A DNA stretch of 64,000 nucleotides from a phage. The notes beneath the pieces are model-generated. The model saw nothing but the letters and a program-made list of their open reading frames with translations. It was not told where the DNA came from and made no database searches. Of this stretch, positions 24,272-45,172 are shown piece by piece. The first letter of the stretch is position 1, and every line of letters begins with the position of its first letter. The DNA is taken from the sequence record OZ335961.1; one strand, given 5' to 3'. A program made the translations under genes and the position numbers.

Positions 24272-24790
24272 TTAATAGCCTCGGTCTTGACGAGCGAAGT
24301 TTTCGGCATTTTTTAGATAATAAAGTTTAAAGATTTCTTCAGCCGTAAGACCGAGACCTTGGAACATGTTCAGAACAAAATGAAGAATATCAATCATTTC
24401 GAATTTAATTTCCAACTGATCTTGTGGAGATAAGTCAGTAATCAGAGTTTCACGGCGTTCACCATGTTGAGATTTCCACGGCTTCCATACAGCAGATGCA
24501 TCTTTTTCGCCATTGCTCATACCACCAAGAGAAGTCAGAAGTTCGCGGAATTCATCATCAATATAATCTTTTTGATTACGCAGCCAATCAACAACTTCAC
24601 CTGCAGTAGCCAAATCATCAGGATGACGGTTATATTCAGGTTTATCTTTAGCTAAACGAACCTGCAGAGATTTCTGCATATCAAGCATAACTTGCAGCGG
24701 GTCTTTTTCATCACCGAGAATATCCCAGTATTCATTTTGAGCTTTATCAGCGCCTTCAATCAGTTGACTACATTCGTTGAAATGTGGCAT
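24272..24790 (-). CDS. 56: dCTPase/dUTPase (MazG-like)
   Basis: 172 aa; recognised as T4 gp56. Confidence 0.85.
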   Translation of the reverse strand: MPHFNECSQLIEGADKAQNEYWDILGDEKDPLQVMLDMQKSLQVRLAKDKPEYNRHPDDLATAGEVVDWLRNQKDYIDDEFRELLTSLGGMSNGEKDASAVWKPWKSQHGERRETLITDLSPQDQLEIKFEMIDILHFVLNMFQGLGLTAEEIFKLYYLKNAENFARQDRGY

Positions 24791-24791
24791 G

Positions 24792-25442
24792 TTATTTTTC
24801 CTTTCTTATGAAGTTTTCTATCATATGTCTATAGCAGATATTAGGATAACCTGCCTTGACAGCTATTTTATTAAATTTTGTGCGCTTAGGTCTATTATTA
24901 TAAACCCATAATTCATAAAGCGCATCATAACTATTCCATATTTCTCCTCGCCTAGGATTTGGTAAACCATATCGAGGCGAATTTTTACCGCTAAATCTTC
25001 CTTTTCGGGCTTTACTCATATTAGTCTTGGCTTCATCGGATATAATTTTACCTTTATGAGCTAGACGCATTTTGGCTTTAGTTTCTTCTGGAGTCTTTTT
25101 GCCTTTAATCCATGACGGCTTACCATATCTAGGATTATTTTCACCCGAGAAAAGAACAGAGTTTTGGATTTTAAGGGTTTCTATTAATCTACTTGTTAAT
25201 TTAACACCTTTATTATATCGCATTAAATTTACAGCATAATGCAATCCTCTCACATCTGGATATATTTTAGTTAATAATCTATGAGCTATAAAATGCTCAC
25301 GCGCAGTTAACTCAACAAGATTGTTTTTGCCATCTGCTCCTCCCATACATCTAGGAATTATATGATGGCGTTCTTTATATCCGCCAAGATGCCGGCATTT
25401 AGCTTTTGTAATTAAAGCCGAGTAAATTTTTTGGTAATTCAC
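24792..25442 (-). mobile_element. free-standing HNH homing endonuclease gene (216 aa)
   Basis: HNH motif ERHHIIPRCMGG...N...EH..H, two NPRYG repeats and NUMOD3-like KTPEETKAKM. Confidence 0.8.
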
Positions 25443-30123: not shown

Positions 30124-30468
30124 TTAAAAGAATTTAAATTTTTTCTTTGACCTTTTATTAAATGCATCTTGTAGTTGCATTGTAATACATTTTTCTACAT
30201 GAGGAGCTAACTCAGCTTTTCTTTCTTGGTCAAGAACAGCAAAGTCCATTACGACTTTTCCATCAACCCAATCTAATTTTGTCACATACACAATGTGTGT
30301 AGAACCATCTTCTAGTTTAATGACAATCTCCTGGATAACATTTTCCATGGCAGATTTAATTATCTTAAGAGATTCACTAAAAAGACGTTCTTTTCTTTCT
30401 TCTTCCCCCTCCGAAGAGGGGGATTCATCGATAATTTCTAGATCTAAATCTAAATCATCTTTATTCAT
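30124..30468 (-). CDS. 40: head vertex assembly protein gp40
   Basis: 114 aa from ATG; track start is GTG; position between uvsX and 41. Confidence 0.7.
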   Translation of the reverse strand: MNKDDLDLDLEIIDESPSSEGEEERKERLFSESLKIIKSAMENVIQEIVIKLEDGSTHIVYVTKLDWVDGKVVMDFAVLDQERKAELAPHVEKCITMQLQDAFNKRSKKKFKFF

Positions 30469-31642
30469 TAAATTCTTCCATATCACTTAACTGATCTAGG
30501 TCAGTTTCTAAATCAGCTGCTGATTTACTTTTACTTTCTGGAGATTTAAATTTTTCAACCTTTGAGTTAATCAATTCATCAACTTCAGCTTCAACAATTT
30601 CATTACTATCAATAGCACCTAACTGATAAGCACGTTTAATAGCATCTCGGAATGGTTGATGCTTAAATAAAGGACCCCAGAATGTAGTGCAATTGGTATC
30701 TTTTGCACGCCAAGATTTTTCTTCGCGAATCATCTCGCCAGTTTCTTCGTCAAGAAATTCACGAGCATACCAGCCATTTTTAGGTTTTACCACAAATCCT
30801 AATTCAAGAGCCATATCTAACAATCCAGAATAAGGATCGATGCCACCGTCAAATTTAACATCAATAAAGAATTTACTTTTTTCTTTAACTGTACGAGATT
30901 TTTCTACATTTAAAACAAATTGATACCCCTGAAGATCGGAACCATCTTTAATCTGGCGCTTACCGATAATGAATACAGTATCAGCCGAATACATTACGCC
31001 TGTACCACCTGTCATCACGGTTTTACTAAACATTTCAATTGTTTCAATTGTATGGTTAACCGCAACACATGGAATGTTTTTAATACTAAAATAAGGAGTA
31101 ACAATACGGAATAATGACTTCAGTGATTTAGCACGAGTCATATCTGCCACAGATTTTTCATTCAAGGCATCTTCCGTTTCTTTCTTAGAAGCCATATTAC
31201 CGATTGAGTCGATGAATACAATAACTTTTTCACCACGCTCAATAGCTTCAAGCTGATTCACCATATCAATTTTCAGCTGTTCAACTGACTGGATTGGTGT
31301 ATGAATTACTCGTTCCGGGTCAACTCCCATGGATCGCAAATAAGCTGGAGTAATACCAAATTCGCTATCATAGAATAGACATACCGCGTCAGGATATTTG
31401 TTCAAATACGCCGCAACCATAGTCAAAGACATATTTGATTTAAAGTGTTTAGAAGGACCTGCAAAAATGGTTAAACCAGACTGCATACCACCATCAATCG
31501 CACCAGAAATAGCGATATTAAGCATTGGGATTTTTGTACGAATTACATCCTTTTCATTAAAGAATTTAGATGTAGTCAGTTCAGCAGTCATTTTAGAAGT
31601 GGAAGCTTTAATCAAACGGGATTTTAAATCTGCAATAGACAT
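30461..31642 (-). CDS. uvsX: UvsX recombinase (RecA-like)
   Basis: 393 aa; recognised. Confidence 0.92.
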   Translation of the reverse strand: MSIADLKSRLIKASTSKMTAELTTSKFFNEKDVIRTKIPMLNIAISGAIDGGMQSGLTIFAGPSKHFKSNMSLTMVAAYLNKYPDAVCLFYDSEFGITPAYLRSMGVDPERVIHTPIQSVEQLKIDMVNQLEAIERGEKVIVFIDSIGNMASKKETEDALNEKSVADMTRAKSLKSLFRIVTPYFSIKNIPCVAVNHTIETIEMFSKTVMTGGTGVMYSADTVFIIGKRQIKDGSDLQGYQFVLNVEKSRTVKEKSKFFIDVKFDGGIDPYSGLLDMALELGFVVKPKNGWYAREFLDEETGEMIREEKSWRAKDTNCTTFWGPLFKHQPFRDAIKRAYQLGAIDSNEIVEAEVDELINSKVEKFKSPESKSKSAADLETDLDQLSDMEEFNE

Positions 31643-31719
31643 TCATTTTTTCCATAGGCATCATTATATTTTCCTCACTGGTTAAAGATAGAGTAATTAT
31701 AACACAATAAATTTAGGCA

Positions 31720-32568
31720 TTAATCAACTGCTATTGGATGAATAGCATTAAACTTATGAAATGCTTCTGATTTTTCTTTGCGCGAAACACACATACGAAG
31801 AACTTTTAATGGCTCGTCTTCTTCACCCAACGATTTTCTCTTTTCAATATTCGATGTTTTCCAACGAGCTTGCTCTGGAAACTCTCTATTGATTTGCTCA
31901 AGAGCTCTATTATGTTTTGAATTACTACGAATTGAACTACATCCGCCAGGAGCTTGCGCTTTTCCGGATACAACCAGATATTTGAACAAGGCCAAATGTG
32001 GATAACCTTGATTAATTAAATTGAGAAATGCATACATATCTTCGCATAAATCAATTTTTCCATACCCAATTTGTTCTGTTGTAAGTTTCCCAAGGTCATA
32101 CCATGTATTCGTGAATCCATATGAATTTTCACGATAATTACCCCAAGATGAAGTAATTTTAAAAATAGGTAAACGAGCATGACCGTGATAATACCCACAA
32201 TCCATGGCATCTTCAACGTATTGAATCAATTCATAGAACTGTTCACGAGTTAATTGATTAATTTTATCTACGCAGCGACGATCATCTTTCTTTCGCATTG
32301 AACTCATACGAATAGTAGTATCATCATCAATCATCCAAATTCGTTGACCTGCATACATATCAGTAATTGCTTTACGAGTACCAGCAATTCCGTTAACATC
32401 ATCAGGAATAGTTATAATTTTAGCTCTAGACCCGTAAGCGTCATAATAAGCTTTTTCTTCGTGTTCACGTACTACAATATGAGGTTCATAATCAGTCGGA
32501 AACATGTCAAGGGCAGAAACTGCCCCTACGCGTTGATAGCTTGGAATTACGAATTGAATCATTTCCAT
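31720..32568 (-). CDS. putative DNA glycosyltransferase, GT-A-like (282 aa)
   Basis: DxD-type motif WMIDDDTT; between uvsX and gene 42. Confidence 0.55.
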   Translation of the reverse strand: MEMIQFVIPSYQRVGAVSALDMFPTDYEPHIVVREHEEKAYYDAYGSRAKIITIPDDVNGIAGTRKAITDMYAGQRIWMIDDDTTIRMSSMRKKDDRRCVDKINQLTREQFYELIQYVEDAMDCGYYHGHARLPIFKITSSWGNYRENSYGFTNTWYDLGKLTTEQIGYGKIDLCEDMYAFLNLINQGYPHLALFKYLVVSGKAQAPGGCSSIRSNSKHNRALEQINREFPEQARWKTSNIEKRKSLGEEDEPLKVLRMCVSRKEKSEAFHKFNAIHPIAVD

Positions 32569-33299
32569 TCACCGTTATAATCTTTTTTCGCAATATGAGT
32601 TTCGCCAGTTTTCCACCAATGGTCAACCAAATAAAAATGACGGGAATACACATGAAGGCTCCCGACATTCCATATAATGGAACCTGCTTTATACTGACGA
32701 GTTGAATCACCTGCATTCAAATCAGATACTAATTTATCTAGTACGTATTTTTGCCATGCATAATCATTACGGAATCCGAAGACTACGTCATTTGAACGCA
32801 TGCTTACTACTGCATTGACTTTCTTATCACGAATCAGGTACTGTACTGTATTCGTACACATGAAATCTGACATACCATCTTTATTGTAGTCAAACTGCAT
32901 GGATGGACGAGTATAAATCATGATACCACGCCGAGAATCAGGGTTTTGACCAAGTTCAGCTAAACACATATCATACTGGGCATAGTTATCTTCTGACCAG
33001 ATAGCCCAACCATAATTCGAGTTAATTTCGCCTTTAGAAGATGCTACCTGTTGCCAAATCTTCGGTGTTTCACCCGGAATATCTTTAACAAACAGACTTT
33101 GAGACTTATACCATTCAAGTTCACGTTGAATGTATTCATCATTAAGAGCGCCAAAAATAAAAGGTTCATCTGCTACAAATGATGCACCAATAATTTCAAT
33201 AGTTTTAACACCAGTTTTATCAATTACGAAATCTTTTTCCTTTAATGCAAGACCCAAATCAAGACGGATTTCTTCAACTGTCATATAATCGTTAATCAT
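32559..33299 (-). CDS. 42: dCMP hydroxymethylase
   Basis: 246 aa; recognised. Confidence 0.92.
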   Translation of the reverse strand: MINDYMTVEEIRLDLGLALKEKDFVIDKTGVKTIEIIGASFVADEPFIFGALNDEYIQRELEWYKSQSLFVKDIPGETPKIWQQVASSKGEINSNYGWAIWSEDNYAQYDMCLAELGQNPDSRRGIMIYTRPSMQFDYNKDGMSDFMCTNTVQYLIRDKKVNAVVSMRSNDVVFGFRNDYAWQKYVLDKLVSDLNAGDSTRQYKAGSIIWNVGSLHVYSRHFYLVDHWWKTGETHIAKKDYNGEWK

Positions 33300-33452
33300 T
33301 TAAACCTCAATTGATGCATTCATATTTAACTTGTAACAGTAATAAACCCCAACCTATAATAAGTGTCGGAATCATACAAGGAACCGTTACGCTATAGTAT
33401 ATACTTATTATAATCATCAAAATTAAAAGCAATACTGCTAAAATTTTGCTTT

Positions 33453-33704
33453 TCATTCCTTCTCTCTGATGATAATTACTTGGTTTTGCTGTGCAGATTT
33501 TTTAGTTTCACCCGCAATTGACCAAATAAATGTAATAAACCAACCAATAATTGACCAATTAAACAGTAAAGATGTGAAAAAGATTCCTACTGTCGATTTT
33601 GACCCACGCATCAAGGCGATGAACCACGGAAGCATGTATATAATAATAGCCAACACGCCTGAAACTAAAACCATAAAAATTGAACCTGCTACTAAAGTTT
33701 CCAT
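33453..33704 (-). CDS. imm: Imm superinfection immunity membrane protein
   Basis: 83 aa, two TM segments; position next to 42. Confidence 0.8.
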   Translation of the reverse strand: METLVAGSIFMVLVSGVLAIIIYMLPWFIALMRGSKSTVGIFFTSLLFNWSIIGWFITFIWSIAGETKKSAQQNQVIIIREKE

Positions 33705-33711
33705 GTTTTCC

Positions 33712-34092
33712 TCACTTAGTCAAATTTTTTACACATGAATTATAAGAATTCACTACATACTCCATTGGAGCATTTTTACCAGTACGCCATTGGTAATTAT
33801 TAGCCCAATTAGCCCAAAGTTCGGCGCAGTAGTTTTCAATTTTTTCTTCGCGTGTAATTACATCTGAATTACGATATGCTTGAGCAGATTCATCTGGACG
33901 AATAGCTTCGTCAAAATTCGCCTGCATTTGTTCTACTGTCTGCTTTGGAGCTTCTTTATAACATTTAACATTAGGATTATAAAATTTACTTGAACAGTTT
34001 ACAATTTTTCCTACATCAGACTGATTTACTACCGGTCCTTGAGCTACACAGCCAGTAAGACCCAATGTAATAACCAAAATAGCAATTTTCAT
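33712..34092 (-). CDS. putative lipoprotein (126 aa)
   Basis: signal peptide with lipobox LTGC. Confidence 0.55.
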   Translation of the reverse strand: MKIAILVITLGLTGCVAQGPVVNQSDVGKIVNCSSKFYNPNVKCYKEAPKQTVEQMQANFDEAIRPDESAQAYRNSDVITREEKIENYCAELWANWANNYQWRTGKNAPMEYVVNSYNSCVKNLTK

Positions 34093-34102
34093 AATAATTT
34101 CC

Positions 34103-34360
34103 TCAAATACAAGTAGTAATTACTCCAGTAGTGCTTACACAGGTATTACCTAATTGAACACCAAGCGTTCCATTAGTATTCATATGAAGATTATCATCAA
34201 TTTTTGTTGATACTTTACCATTCATGTGAATAACAGTATTAGATTCAATCACATTCTGAGTGTCATTTTCAATATCAATAAATGGAACAGCTGCTAATGC
34301 AACTAGAACAACTGCTAATGCAACTAAACACGCTGCTAAACAACCATAAACAGTTTTCAT
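34103..34360 (-). CDS. small membrane-anchored protein (85 aa)
   Basis: ATG MKTVYGC after conserved leader; track extension translates promoter. Confidence 0.5.
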   Translation of the reverse strand: MKTVYGCLAACLVALAVVLVALAAVPFIDIENDTQNVIESNTVIHMNGKVSTKIDDNLHMNTNGTLGVQLGNTCVSTTGVITTCI

Positions 34361-34394
34361 TTTATTCTCCAAATCCGTATCAGTTGATAGTTGT

Positions 34395-34424
34395 ATAGTA
34401 CCATGGAAGAACAGAGATGTAAAC
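34395..34424 (-). promoter_or_regulatory. T4-type early promoter
   Basis: TTTACA -17- TGGTACTAT. Confidence 0.7.
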
Positions 34425-34506
34425 CGTTTTGTGAAAAAATTTTTAATGAATTTACAGGACCTAGAATCATCTATTTTTCCTAAGTATAGATTTATATTAC
34501 TTGTAT

Positions 34507-34528
34507 GAAAAAGGGACCCGGAGGTCCC
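34507..34528 (-). terminator. intrinsic terminator
   Basis: hairpin gggacc-cgga-ggtccc followed on minus strand by U-run. Confidence 0.65.
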
Positions 34529-34541
34529 TAGATTTATTCTA

Positions 34542-37238
34542 TCAGCCAAACAGGAAGTCTAACGAAGCTTTTTCCTCATAGTCCATACCTGCCGATTCAC
34601 ACATGCCCGCAAGTGGTTTAACAAACGATTTTTGGAACAAAGTTGAGTAGTCAATCCAAGACAGTACGTCAGAACGAATTTCTTTTGGAAGTTCTGTGCC
34701 TGATGGCCAAGCAATGCACTTGTCACCAAATGGATTTCCCTCACGTAACGGAAGAACCATTACCTTATTTCCATCCAAAATTGGAGCTACACCTAAACCG
34801 CTAACAGCTCGACGATAAGTTAGCACACCACGAATATGGAACGGACATTTAAATCCTGGCCAACCTTTATCATCATATTTCGCTATATCGTTCGCAGTTT
34901 TTACTTCAGCAATAACTTTATAGTCAAGTTGACGATATTCTTTCTCAAAGTTCTTGTAGTATTCTTGGACAGACTCTTCACCTTCCTGAAGAATACGACG
35001 AATACTTTCTTCGAGAGCTTCTTGTACTGCTTTTGGTGTTGAACTCTGTTGAGTTTCCATACCCATAATTTTTAGATGCGGTTCGGCAAATCGCTTATCT
35101 TCCATATCATAAACGTTCAGAGCATAACGTTTTTTCGCTTTCCAAAATCCACCGACACCCTTTGAACCAAGCGGAGGGCAAGAAATAGCTTCACGGTCCA
35201 TATGCATCAGATGCTCGCGGTTATTCATATAATCACATAACTCACGATATGCAACATCAATCATAGGTTCCATCTTTTTCTTACCAAACTGATTCATGAA
35301 TTCAACTAAATCATTTTGTTCTTTAAAGCGATCAAGACCTACTTTTTCAATAACTTTATCTACACAAACATATACAGAATCAGTATCACCTGCTGCGATG
35401 AAATCTTCACCATTAGTTCCACATACTTTATTCAGATATTCATTAATTTTGCGAGCAATCCACTGAATACCGACTTGACCGAAAATTGTGATAGCAGTAG
35501 CATTTCGCAAATCATAGTAACGGAAATGAATATTACCAAGAGCACCATAAAGACTGTTAATAAGAATTTTACGGTTCAGCTGATTTGTGTTAGCAAGTGT
35601 AGCTGCTTTTTCACATTCTTCGATCAGACTATTAAGAACAGATTCGGTGTAATTCGATAATTCGTTTAAGAAATCATCATTGAACTTAACATATCGTTCA
35701 ACTTCTGGTTTAGTTGAGCAAGACCCTGCACCTTTCATAATAATCTTTTTAATAGCTTCGGCATTCATTTCTTCAGCGAACATTTTCTTTTTCCAATCTT
35801 TACGCTGGAAAAATACTTTAGCGATTTCCTTTGGAATGATACCTTCTTGGTGCTTATCATACATCCATCCATTCGGAGAACAAGAATATTCATCACTTGG
35901 CTTAGGAGCTGTTCCTGCGATATATTCATGAATTGGATGAACTTTAAACTGCCCACGAATAGTCTCAGGACTAATGTTAACCTGACGAATAATGCTAGGA
36001 TACAGAGACGTCAAGTCAAAACTCATAATGTATCGACGAGCAATCGGTTTAGGTTCAAACACAAATGCACCTGGAAAACTCTGTTTAACGTGCGAACCTT
36101 GTTGAGGAATAACCTTATGTTCACCTTTCAGTGAGTTAAAAATAATAGCATCCCAAGTTTTAATAGGACTCATTACACCAGAAAAAGGCATTTTAGCGTA
36201 ATAAGACATACTTAAAACTAGATCGATAAACCCACGAATTTTATCAATTGCTTGAACTGATTCTACGTCAATGATGTTATAACTAATGTATCGTTGATGA
36301 TTAGTCTCACGAAGTTTATTAATAGGACCATCATACGGCAATTTACCTTTTTTGGTTTCATGTTGAGCAACTGATTCCAAAGAGAACGATGGCAAATTAG
36401 TAAATGCGAATTTCTTGTACAAATCTAAATAATCAAGAATAGATACGCCATCAATAGAATAAATTTCTTTGCTACCGTACATATTTTGAATTAGTTTAGA
36501 TTTTACTCGACCGATTGGAGAGAAGCGTTTCATACTACGTTCACCGAGAACCATTTTAACGCGATTCATGATATACGGAACGTCAAATCCCTCAATATTC
36601 CAACCGGTAAAAATAGCAGGTCGTTTCTGTTCCCAGAGATTAATATATTCCATGAGCATATCACGCTCATTATCAAATGGCATATAAATTACTCGGTCAA
36701 GAATTTCTTGAGGAACTTCATCACCACCTTCACAGTCAAGCTTAGCAGCTAACTTTGCATCCCATTTTGATACTGAACCGTACATTGAATTCAACAAATC
36801 AAAGACGTAAAAACGGTCGTCAATTGAATCATAATGAGTGATAGCATCAATTTCATATTCTGCTTTCATTGGGTCAGGAAATTTATCACCAGTAACCTCA
36901 ATGTCACAGTTAGCTACACGAACAAATTTTCGGTCATAAACAATTTCTGAACCATATGTATCACTGATATAAGCGAGTTTAAAATCGTTCATACCGAGAG
37001 CTTCGAGACCGATGTCTTCCATTCGCTTCATCCAGTCTCGCGCATCTTTCATTGATGGAAATTTTTGAGGAGCGCAATTTTTACCATAAATGTCTTTGTA
37101 TTTTGACTCTTCCTTACAATGCCTAAACATAGTCGGAAGATATTCTACTTCACGAGTACGTTCCTTTCCGTTTTCATCAATATAACGTTCAACAATATTA
37201 TTTCCGACTGTTTCGATAGAGATATAAAATTCTTTCAT
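34542..37238 (-). CDS. 43: DNA polymerase (family B)
   Basis: 898 aa; recognised. Confidence 0.95.
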   Translation of the reverse strand: MKEFYISIETVGNNIVERYIDENGKERTREVEYLPTMFRHCKEESKYKDIYGKNCAPQKFPSMKDARDWMKRMEDIGLEALGMNDFKLAYISDTYGSEIVYDRKFVRVANCDIEVTGDKFPDPMKAEYEIDAITHYDSIDDRFYVFDLLNSMYGSVSKWDAKLAAKLDCEGGDEVPQEILDRVIYMPFDNERDMLMEYINLWEQKRPAIFTGWNIEGFDVPYIMNRVKMVLGERSMKRFSPIGRVKSKLIQNMYGSKEIYSIDGVSILDYLDLYKKFAFTNLPSFSLESVAQHETKKGKLPYDGPINKLRETNHQRYISYNIIDVESVQAIDKIRGFIDLVLSMSYYAKMPFSGVMSPIKTWDAIIFNSLKGEHKVIPQQGSHVKQSFPGAFVFEPKPIARRYIMSFDLTSLYPSIIRQVNISPETIRGQFKVHPIHEYIAGTAPKPSDEYSCSPNGWMYDKHQEGIIPKEIAKVFFQRKDWKKKMFAEEMNAEAIKKIIMKGAGSCSTKPEVERYVKFNDDFLNELSNYTESVLNSLIEECEKAATLANTNQLNRKILINSLYGALGNIHFRYYDLRNATAITIFGQVGIQWIARKINEYLNKVCGTNGEDFIAAGDTDSVYVCVDKVIEKVGLDRFKEQNDLVEFMNQFGKKKMEPMIDVAYRELCDYMNNREHLMHMDREAISCPPLGSKGVGGFWKAKKRYALNVYDMEDKRFAEPHLKIMGMETQQSSTPKAVQEALEESIRRILQEGEESVQEYYKNFEKEYRQLDYKVIAEVKTANDIAKYDDKGWPGFKCPFHIRGVLTYRRAVSGLGVAPILDGNKVMVLPLREGNPFGDKCIAWPSGTELPKEIRSDVLSWIDYSTLFQKSFVKPLAGMCESAGMDYEEKASLDFLFG

Positions 37239-43969: not shown

Positions 43970-45172
43970 TTATTTTGTAATAATGTCAAACTGTTCTTTA
44001 AAACAGAAGCTTGAATCTTGATGCTGATACAAAAATTCATAAGCTTTTTCACGTTCACGGTCATAAAGATTTCGGTCAGATGACAGTTCTTTAATACGCT
44101 CAAATGTTGATTCCATGTCATTTTCATCAAACCAAACGATACCGCTATCATGAGAAATTAACGGAGTATTATCAACACGGAATTTTAAATTTTCGCCAGT
44201 AGATTTCCAAAATACCGGAATTGTTCCACACGCACCAAGCTCGAGATGAGTATATTCTAAAGAACGTTGTAGATATTTTTTATCTAATTTACTCAGCTGA
44301 TAACCAAATCCGGATTTACTCATGCGTTCAAGCATTTCGCTATTTACATAACGGTCAAGAATTTGCGTTGGCAAATTAGGAGCAATTTTAATTTGGTCTA
44401 CTTGATGAAGACGATAATACTCGTATGGAATTCCTTTTTCTTTAATAGGAATGAACGCTGGAGAACGTTCCAGACCTTCCATAATAGTACTTAGTCCTGC
44501 AGGTTTAAGATGTTTTTCGTGAAAATCAAACATCTGATAAAAGCCTTTCCATGTAGTCGTACGACCAATCCAACGGTTGACATTCATGTTAATTTCAGAA
44601 ACATCTTTCCAGTAGGTTGATCGAACCTTCACAATATCCATAGGAGGCTGAAAGTTGTATACAGTCGGTGCTTCTTCAATATCATCAAACAGTGAAACAG
44701 TTTCTGGATACCATTCTTTCATCAAAACTTTATTAAAATCGCCATTATCAGAATGACTAAAAATAACATCAGCTCGACGAACAGTTTCTTCTAATCCCAA
44801 ATTTCGGCGCAAAGAAAGAGAAGAATGGTCATGTTGATAAACTACAACACGAACCGAAGGTTTAATGTTATCAATAATTTTTTTATAGTTATTAATAGTG
44901 TCTTCTTCGACTGAAGTAGCAGGAACTGAATTGATAATTAGAATATCACAATCATTTACCAGCTTAAGTGTTTTATCGTATTCTTTTGCCAATAAAACCG
45001 GAATTGAAAATGATTTATAATCATGCGCGCAATTACGGGTAAATGATTTATCTTTAGCATAAACCAAAGTTACTTCATGACCATTTTTAATAAACCAATC
45101 ACGTTGCTCAAGAGAAAATTTAGTTACGCCACAACCTTCAAGACCTCGAGCCATAAAAATGCATACTTTCAT
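43970..45172 (-). CDS. a-gt: DNA alpha-glucosyltransferase
   Basis: 400 aa; recognised. Confidence 0.88.
   Translation of the reverse strand: MKVCIFMARGLEGCGVTKFSLEQRDWFIKNGHEVTLVYAKDKSFTRNCAHDYKSFSIPVLLAKEYDKTLKLVNDCDILIINSVPATSVEEDTINNYKKIIDNIKPSVRVVVYQHDHSSLSLRRNLGLEETVRRADVIFSHSDNGDFNKVLMKEWYPETVSLFDDIEEAPTVYNFQPPMDIVKVRSTYWKDVSEINMNVNRWIGRTTTWKGFYQMFDFHEKHLKPAGLSTIMEGLERSPAFIPIKEKGIPYEYYRLHQVDQIKIAPNLPTQILDRYVNSEMLERMSKSGFGYQLSKLDKKYLQRSLEYTHLELGACGTIPVFWKSTGENLKFRVDNTPLISHDSGIVWFDENDMESTFERIKELSSDRNLYDREREKAYEFLYQHQDSSFCFKEQFDIITK

Follow-up and report, generated by a model that had tools for sequence, protein, structure and literature searches.

The locus between uvsX and gene 42

The stretch of phage DNA analysed here (OZ335961.1; 64,000 nucleotides, hereafter the window) carries a minus-strand gene, ggt, located between uvsX and gene 42, which is the slot occupied by ggt in T2 and T6. 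The following genes and features of the window are considered:

30461-31642, downstream of ggt: uvsX, matching PF21134 and PF00154 (RecA), 90% identical to T4 UvsX
31720-32562, minus strand: ggt (or ba-gt), very probably encoding a beta-glucosyl-HMC-alpha-glucosyltransferase of the TAGT family (PHROG 842, PF20691, identity to the T2 and T6 proteins), 280 aa from its probable start
32326-32334, minus strand: GAT GAT GAT codons of the DDD motif (residues 79-81 of the ggt product), a putative DxD motif binding a divalent metal and the UDP-sugar
32559-33299, minus strand: gene 42, the dCMP hydroxymethylase making the hydroxymethylcytosine (hmC) precursor, matching PF00303 (thymidylate-synthase fold), 95.5% identical to T4 gp42
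24272-24790, minus strand: gene 56, dCTPase/dCTP pyrophosphatase, found by tblastn with T6 gp56 (71.5% identity over 172 aa)
43970-45172, minus strand: a-gt, DNA alpha-glucosyltransferase, matching PF11440 (E 3e-236), 91% identical to T4 a-gt over 400 aa

The longest ATG-initiated frame of this gene, 31720-32568 on the minus strand, encodes 282 aa and includes WMIDDDTT. The first-pass annotation, which described this frame between uvsX and gene 42, was right about the ORF, the motif and the place, but the start is probably at 32562 rather than 32568 and the product therefore 280 aa long. The ATG at 32568 is directly preceded by GGTGA. The ATG of the third codon, at 32562, overlaps the stop codon of gene 42 (ATGA), lies about 9 nt downstream of GGTGA and is the one from which the T2, EH2 and Geo orthologues, all of 280 aa, are annotated, which together favour it as the start. 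Residue numbers below refer to this 280-aa protein. Translation of gene 42 is probably coupled to that of ggt. The GC content across ggt (33-39%) is unremarkable for this genome, and a scan for promoter and terminator consensus sequences around the gene found sites no more frequent than in shuffled sequence.

The pathway partners are also present. The canonical a-gt that had been placed at 43970-45172 is confirmed by its profile match and its identity to the T4 enzyme; the T2 and T6 enzymes match it at 98.5% and 90.5% identity, respectively. Another member of the hmC pathway is the dCTPase gp56, which prevents unmodified cytosine from entering phage DNA.

T4 itself, as the first-pass annotation stated, encodes the 351-aa beta-glucosyltransferase (b-gt) at the equivalent position, together with segA, a GIY-YIG homing endonuclease gene lying between uvsX and b-gt. 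In the window, as in T2 and T6, the gap between uvsX and ggt (31643-31719) is only 77 nt. The alternation of ggt and b-gt is thus accompanied by a differing content in mobile elements at the uvsX junction. The interval between genes 42 and 43 is likewise a variable cassette adjoining the modification genes. In the window (33307-34549, minus strand) it holds small membrane-protein ORFs (a 49-aa ORF, an imm-like ORF of 83 aa and an imm.1-like ORF of 126 aa), with a further ORF at 34103-34549 (minus strand), whose product is likely to be short and hydrophobic. An additional small ORF (RB51ORF048) occurs there in T2 but not in T4. Directly upstream of gene 56, the position occupied by dam in T2, T4 and Geo, the window has a 216-aa ORF (24792-25442, minus strand) with an HNH-like motif, ERHHIIPRCMGG...NLVELTAREHFIAH, and repeated G-x-N-x-PRYG elements; it probably encodes a homing endonuclease. 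Within the 64-kb window, the search for a dam homologue gave no match at an E-value of 1e-5 or better.

Family and fold of the ggt product

The ggt product matches PHROG 842, "beta-glucosyl-HMC-alpha-glucosyltransferase", over its full length (E 1.9e-89). By direct alignment over 280 aa, it is 99% identical to the T2 protein (MH751506) and 98% identical to that of T6 (AP018814, MH550421). A tblastn search of 50,697 phage records returned ggt matches in 690 of them, 99 with at least 99% identity and 373 with 95-99%. Those with at least 95% identity come mainly from Tequatrovirus phages of Escherichia, Shigella and Yersinia (the EH2 orthologue being 98.9% identical). T4-like phages of Klebsiella, Enterobacter, Salmonella and Citrobacter contribute a further group of matches with 60-80% identity. 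The surrounding 7 kb are 98.2% identical to several Tequatrovirus genomes. A single wide protein search retrieved 11 clusters ranging from 99% down to 29% identity, nearly all with a precomputed PF20691 assignment. It is therefore almost certain that this gene encodes the beta-glucosyl-HMC-alpha-glucosyltransferase of T2/T6 type (ggt, ba-gt, TAGT); no result speaks against this, and the earlier suggestion of a T2/T6-type second-glucose transferase is borne out by the identity to both proteins and by the PHROG match.

The Pfam family PF20691 (TET-associated glycosyltransferase, TAGT) is the domain common to nearly all the homologues found. Its match to the window protein covers the full domain (residues 5-209, profile positions 2-205 of 205) with 38.8 bits, above the curated gathering cutoff of 27.5. 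The score is modest (E 1.2e-9), which places the T-even enzymes on a divergent branch of PF20691. Although the family is named after TET, hmC is made here by gp42 at the nucleotide level, with no TET/JBP oxygenase taking part.

The protein had also been said not to resemble T4 b-gt, and this proved correct: BLASTP between the two gave only chance fragments (best E 3.4) with no full-length similarity. Furthermore, the Pfam profile search gave no PF09198 match for the ggt product, and tblastn of T4 b-gt across the whole 64-kb window returned nothing better than E 1.4. By similarity, therefore, b-gt is absent at least from these 64 kb, and a reading of the gene as a divergent b-gt was rejected for want of any BLASTP or tblastn similarity. 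The two enzymes share their genomic slot, the UDP-glucose donor, the beta linkage and a role in hmC hypermodification. However, T4 b-gt has a GT-B fold (PF09198; CAZy GT63 or GT72, the source being ambiguous) and uses the hydroxymethyl group of hmC as acceptor, whereas ggt is of GT-A type and its acceptor is the glucose of alpha-glucosyl-hmC.

The AlphaFold2 model of the ggt product, of moderate confidence and with disordered stretches at 127-138 and 191-211 (the latter including the conserved PGGxSxxR motif), shows a single Rossmann-like alpha/beta/alpha nucleotide-sugar domain with a predicted DxD metal-binding motif after the fourth strand, as in GT-A enzymes; DDD 79-81 directly follows the strand at 74-77. 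In a Foldseek search against predicted viral structures, the top hit was a Klebsiella phage ba-gt (E 1.5e-33), and the next ones were TAGT-domain proteins of diverse phages. A sequence-only search of the PDB gave no significant match. Its best hit and sole profile match (E 0.25) was the GT2 enzyme 9jma, and in this non-significant alignment IPSYxR pairs with IPTYNR, GIAGTR with GPSGAR and IWMLDDD with VAFLDDD. The DDD of ggt, by aligning with that of LDDDD in 9jma, falls at the place expected for the GT2 DxD. An alignment of nine homologous sequences shows I6-P7-S8-Y9, R11, G58, T62, R63, D79-D80-D81, D93, D121, D175, Y177, G206-G207, S209 and R212 to be invariant. The assignment to a GT-A type with a DxD motif, made at first from the letters alone, thus has the backing of an independent alignment (9jma), of the strand placement in the model and of the invariance of the DDD in nine homologues.

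This likeness to GT2 does not by itself make ggt a member of CAZy GT2. Sequence identity with GT2-family GT-A enzymes (TarP 6h1j, BcsA 9fmv, AvpGT 9jma) is only 8-16%, their acceptors are lipid, teichoic acid or glycan whereas that of ggt is a sugar on duplex DNA, and the PGGxSxxR loop has no obvious counterpart in them. The analyses above establish which gene this is, its fold class, the conservation of its motifs and its place in the pathway; the function itself was demonstrated experimentally on near-identical orthologues, from which we infer that the window allele is active.

The second glucose and its extent

T2 and T6 lack b-gt and combine a-gt with a second transferase converting alpha-glucosyl-hmC into gentiobiosyl-hmC (bioRxiv 10.64898/2026.02.25.707755; PMC13216743), the share of hmC in this form being about 5% for T2 and about 72% for T6, while about 25% stays bare (bioRxiv 10.64898/2026.02.25.707755; PMC13216743). 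This second transferase was assigned to PF20691, and the T6 protein was modelled as a GT-A fold, sister to GT2 (PMC13216743). The common arrangement is a-gt or b-gt together with a TAGT, the T4-type pair of a-gt and b-gt being found in only 6 of 753 genomes (PMC13216743). HPLC/MS measurement of the nucleosides of ten Tequatrovirus phages revealed that EH2 DNA contains about one-third hmdC and two-thirds alpha-5-gentiobiosyl-mdC, and TAGT was described as syntenic with T4 b-gt (PMC13390438). When ba-gt is deleted from T6, only alpha-glucosyl-hmC remains, and the DNA gains in sensitivity to the Brig1 glycosylase (PMC11078745) and turns into a substrate of the BapA deglucosylase (bioRxiv 10.64898/2026.02.25.707755).

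By analogy, gp42 and gp56 would lead to hmC in place of cytosine in the window phage, and a-gt, a GT-B enzyme, would then add an alpha-linked glucose to about three quarters of hmC. The GT-A enzyme ggt would transfer a second glucose from UDP-glucose, in beta-1,6 linkage, onto the first, as shown for its orthologues, to give gentiobiosyl-hmC. It would thereby act as an inverting, metal-dependent, GT2-like transferase; formation of a beta linkage from UDP-alpha-glucose needs inversion, and GT2-like GT-A enzymes invert. Binding of UDP-glucose and of the metal would fall to DDD 79-81 together with two N-terminal elements, IPSYxR and GxxGTR; of these, the DDD presumably takes the divalent metal and the diphosphate of UDP. 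The catalytic base, which activates the 6-OH of the DNA-linked alpha-glucose, is likely to be D175, because this residue is invariant, lies at the start of helix 174-184 in a CED stretch and resembles the "ED" base of GT2 enzymes. The PGGxSxxR loop (205-212), conserved but poorly modelled, may contact the DNA-borne acceptor. The second glucose would hide alpha-glucosyl-hmC from Brig1 and BapA.

The T2 and T6 genes have the same 280-aa length, uvsX-gene 42 slot, ATGA junction with gene 42 and partner a-gt as that of the window. Only four substitutions separate the window protein from that of T2 (R11H, K92R, I101V and P251S, window residue first) and five from that of T6 (Y40N, D55G, K92R, I101V and R106H). 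Each T6 record also has its own ggt lesion, so that two independent T6 sequences show two different lesions, neither of which is seen in the window or in T2. MH550421 (7951-7953, minus strand) has TAG at codon 10 of the 280-aa frame, where the window (32533-32535), T2 and the other T6 record, AP018814, have CAA; its ggt is annotated as 261 aa from an internal Met, a product in which the first strand and PSYxR would be missing. This amber codon, odd for a phage with 72% gentiobiosyl-hmC, could be explained by mutation of the stock, by suppression or by an error in sequencing. In AP018814 (4135-4974, minus strand), codon 10 is intact but one Asp of the DDD is missing (WMIDDTT, 279 aa), the GATGATGAT run being shorter by one unit, in frame (compare window 32326-32334).

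With about 98% identity between their enzymes, T2 and T6 still differ as 5% to 72% in gentiobiosyl-hmC, so the ggt sequence is no predictor of the extent of second glucosylation. It is therefore worth considering, though rather unlikely, that ggt is intact but a minor contributor, as in T2 (about 5% di-glucosylated), the DNA being essentially alpha-mono-glucosylated; this would be a quantitative variant of the main explanation and not another function. The window a-gt is indeed much closer to that of T2 than to that of T6, and T2 ggt is 99% identical to the window protein. However, T2 ggt (MH751506, 7286-8128) has a histidine at residue 11, inside the otherwise invariant PSYxR, whereas the window keeps the arginine (codon at 32530-32532). 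T6, EH2 and Geo have this arginine too, as do all nine homologues of the alignment, the most distant of them at 32% identity. The three phages named have 40-72% gentiobiosyl-hmC (PMC13390438; bioRxiv 10.64898/2026.02.25.707755). In addition, the dam locus of the window has no dam, like that of T6 and of the Durham phages rich in gentiobiosyl-hmC and unlike that of T2 or Geo (PMC13390438).

The R11H substitution may explain the low value of T2, being the sole candidate in a comparison of four phenotyped sequences (T2 low, T6 and EH2 high, Geo intermediate), a sample too small for any firm inference. We lean towards a T6-like, mostly di-glucosylated window phage, this being a correlation across very few genomes; any di-glucosylated fraction given for it is an extrapolation from relatives, the mono/di ratio not being readable from sequence. 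It is improbable, though less so than a change of function, that the R11, K92 and I101 allele, combined with a T2-like a-gt, brings glucosylation outside the range of T2, T6 and the Durham phages, for instance by di-glucosylating almost all of the hmC or by adding a third sugar.

A functional replacement of T4 b-gt, in which ggt would beta-glucosylate the bare hmC left by a-gt, is very improbable. It would agree with the synteny of the two genes. Distant TAGT homologues are also found in phages without a-gt or b-gt (PMC13216743), so that some members of the family must act on something other than glucosyl-hmC. However, T2, T6 and EH2, whose proteins are 98-99% identical to that of the window, retain about 25-33% bare hmC (PMC13390438; bioRxiv 10.64898/2026.02.25.707755), beta-glucosyl-hmC was not detected in the Durham phages (PMC13390438), and the T6 delta-ba-gt mutant shifts from gentiobiosyl-hmC to alpha-glucosyl-hmC with no gain in bare hmC (PMC11078745). 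Moreover, the folds are unrelated. A novel hypermodification, by transfer of another sugar (e.g., arabinose, as in RB69/Mosigvirus) or formation of another linkage, is extremely improbable: the donor specificity of GT-A enzymes can shift with few substitutions, and K92 and I101 differ from both T2 and T6, but the protein is 98-99% identical to enzymes with a known gentiobiosyl product, keeps all invariant positions of the family and is accompanied by the hmC pathway and a canonical a-gt, and I101 is also present in Geo, whose DNA contains gentiobiosyl-hmC (PMC13390438).

Significance

The assignment of ggt as the second-glucose transferase is correct but already known: the literature describes the enzyme itself, where it is encoded, how it folds and how it serves counter-defence. 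For this window, it matters as annotation only, ggt being the usual occupant of the uvsX-gene 42 slot in T4-like coliphages. The DNA of the window phage is predicted to contain hmC, alpha-glucosyl-hmC and gentiobiosyl-hmC but no beta-glucosyl-hmC. From this pattern, it would be expected to escape Brig1 and BapA in part, while still being sensitive to GmrSD/BrxU-type enzymes and to the hmC-specific Brig3.
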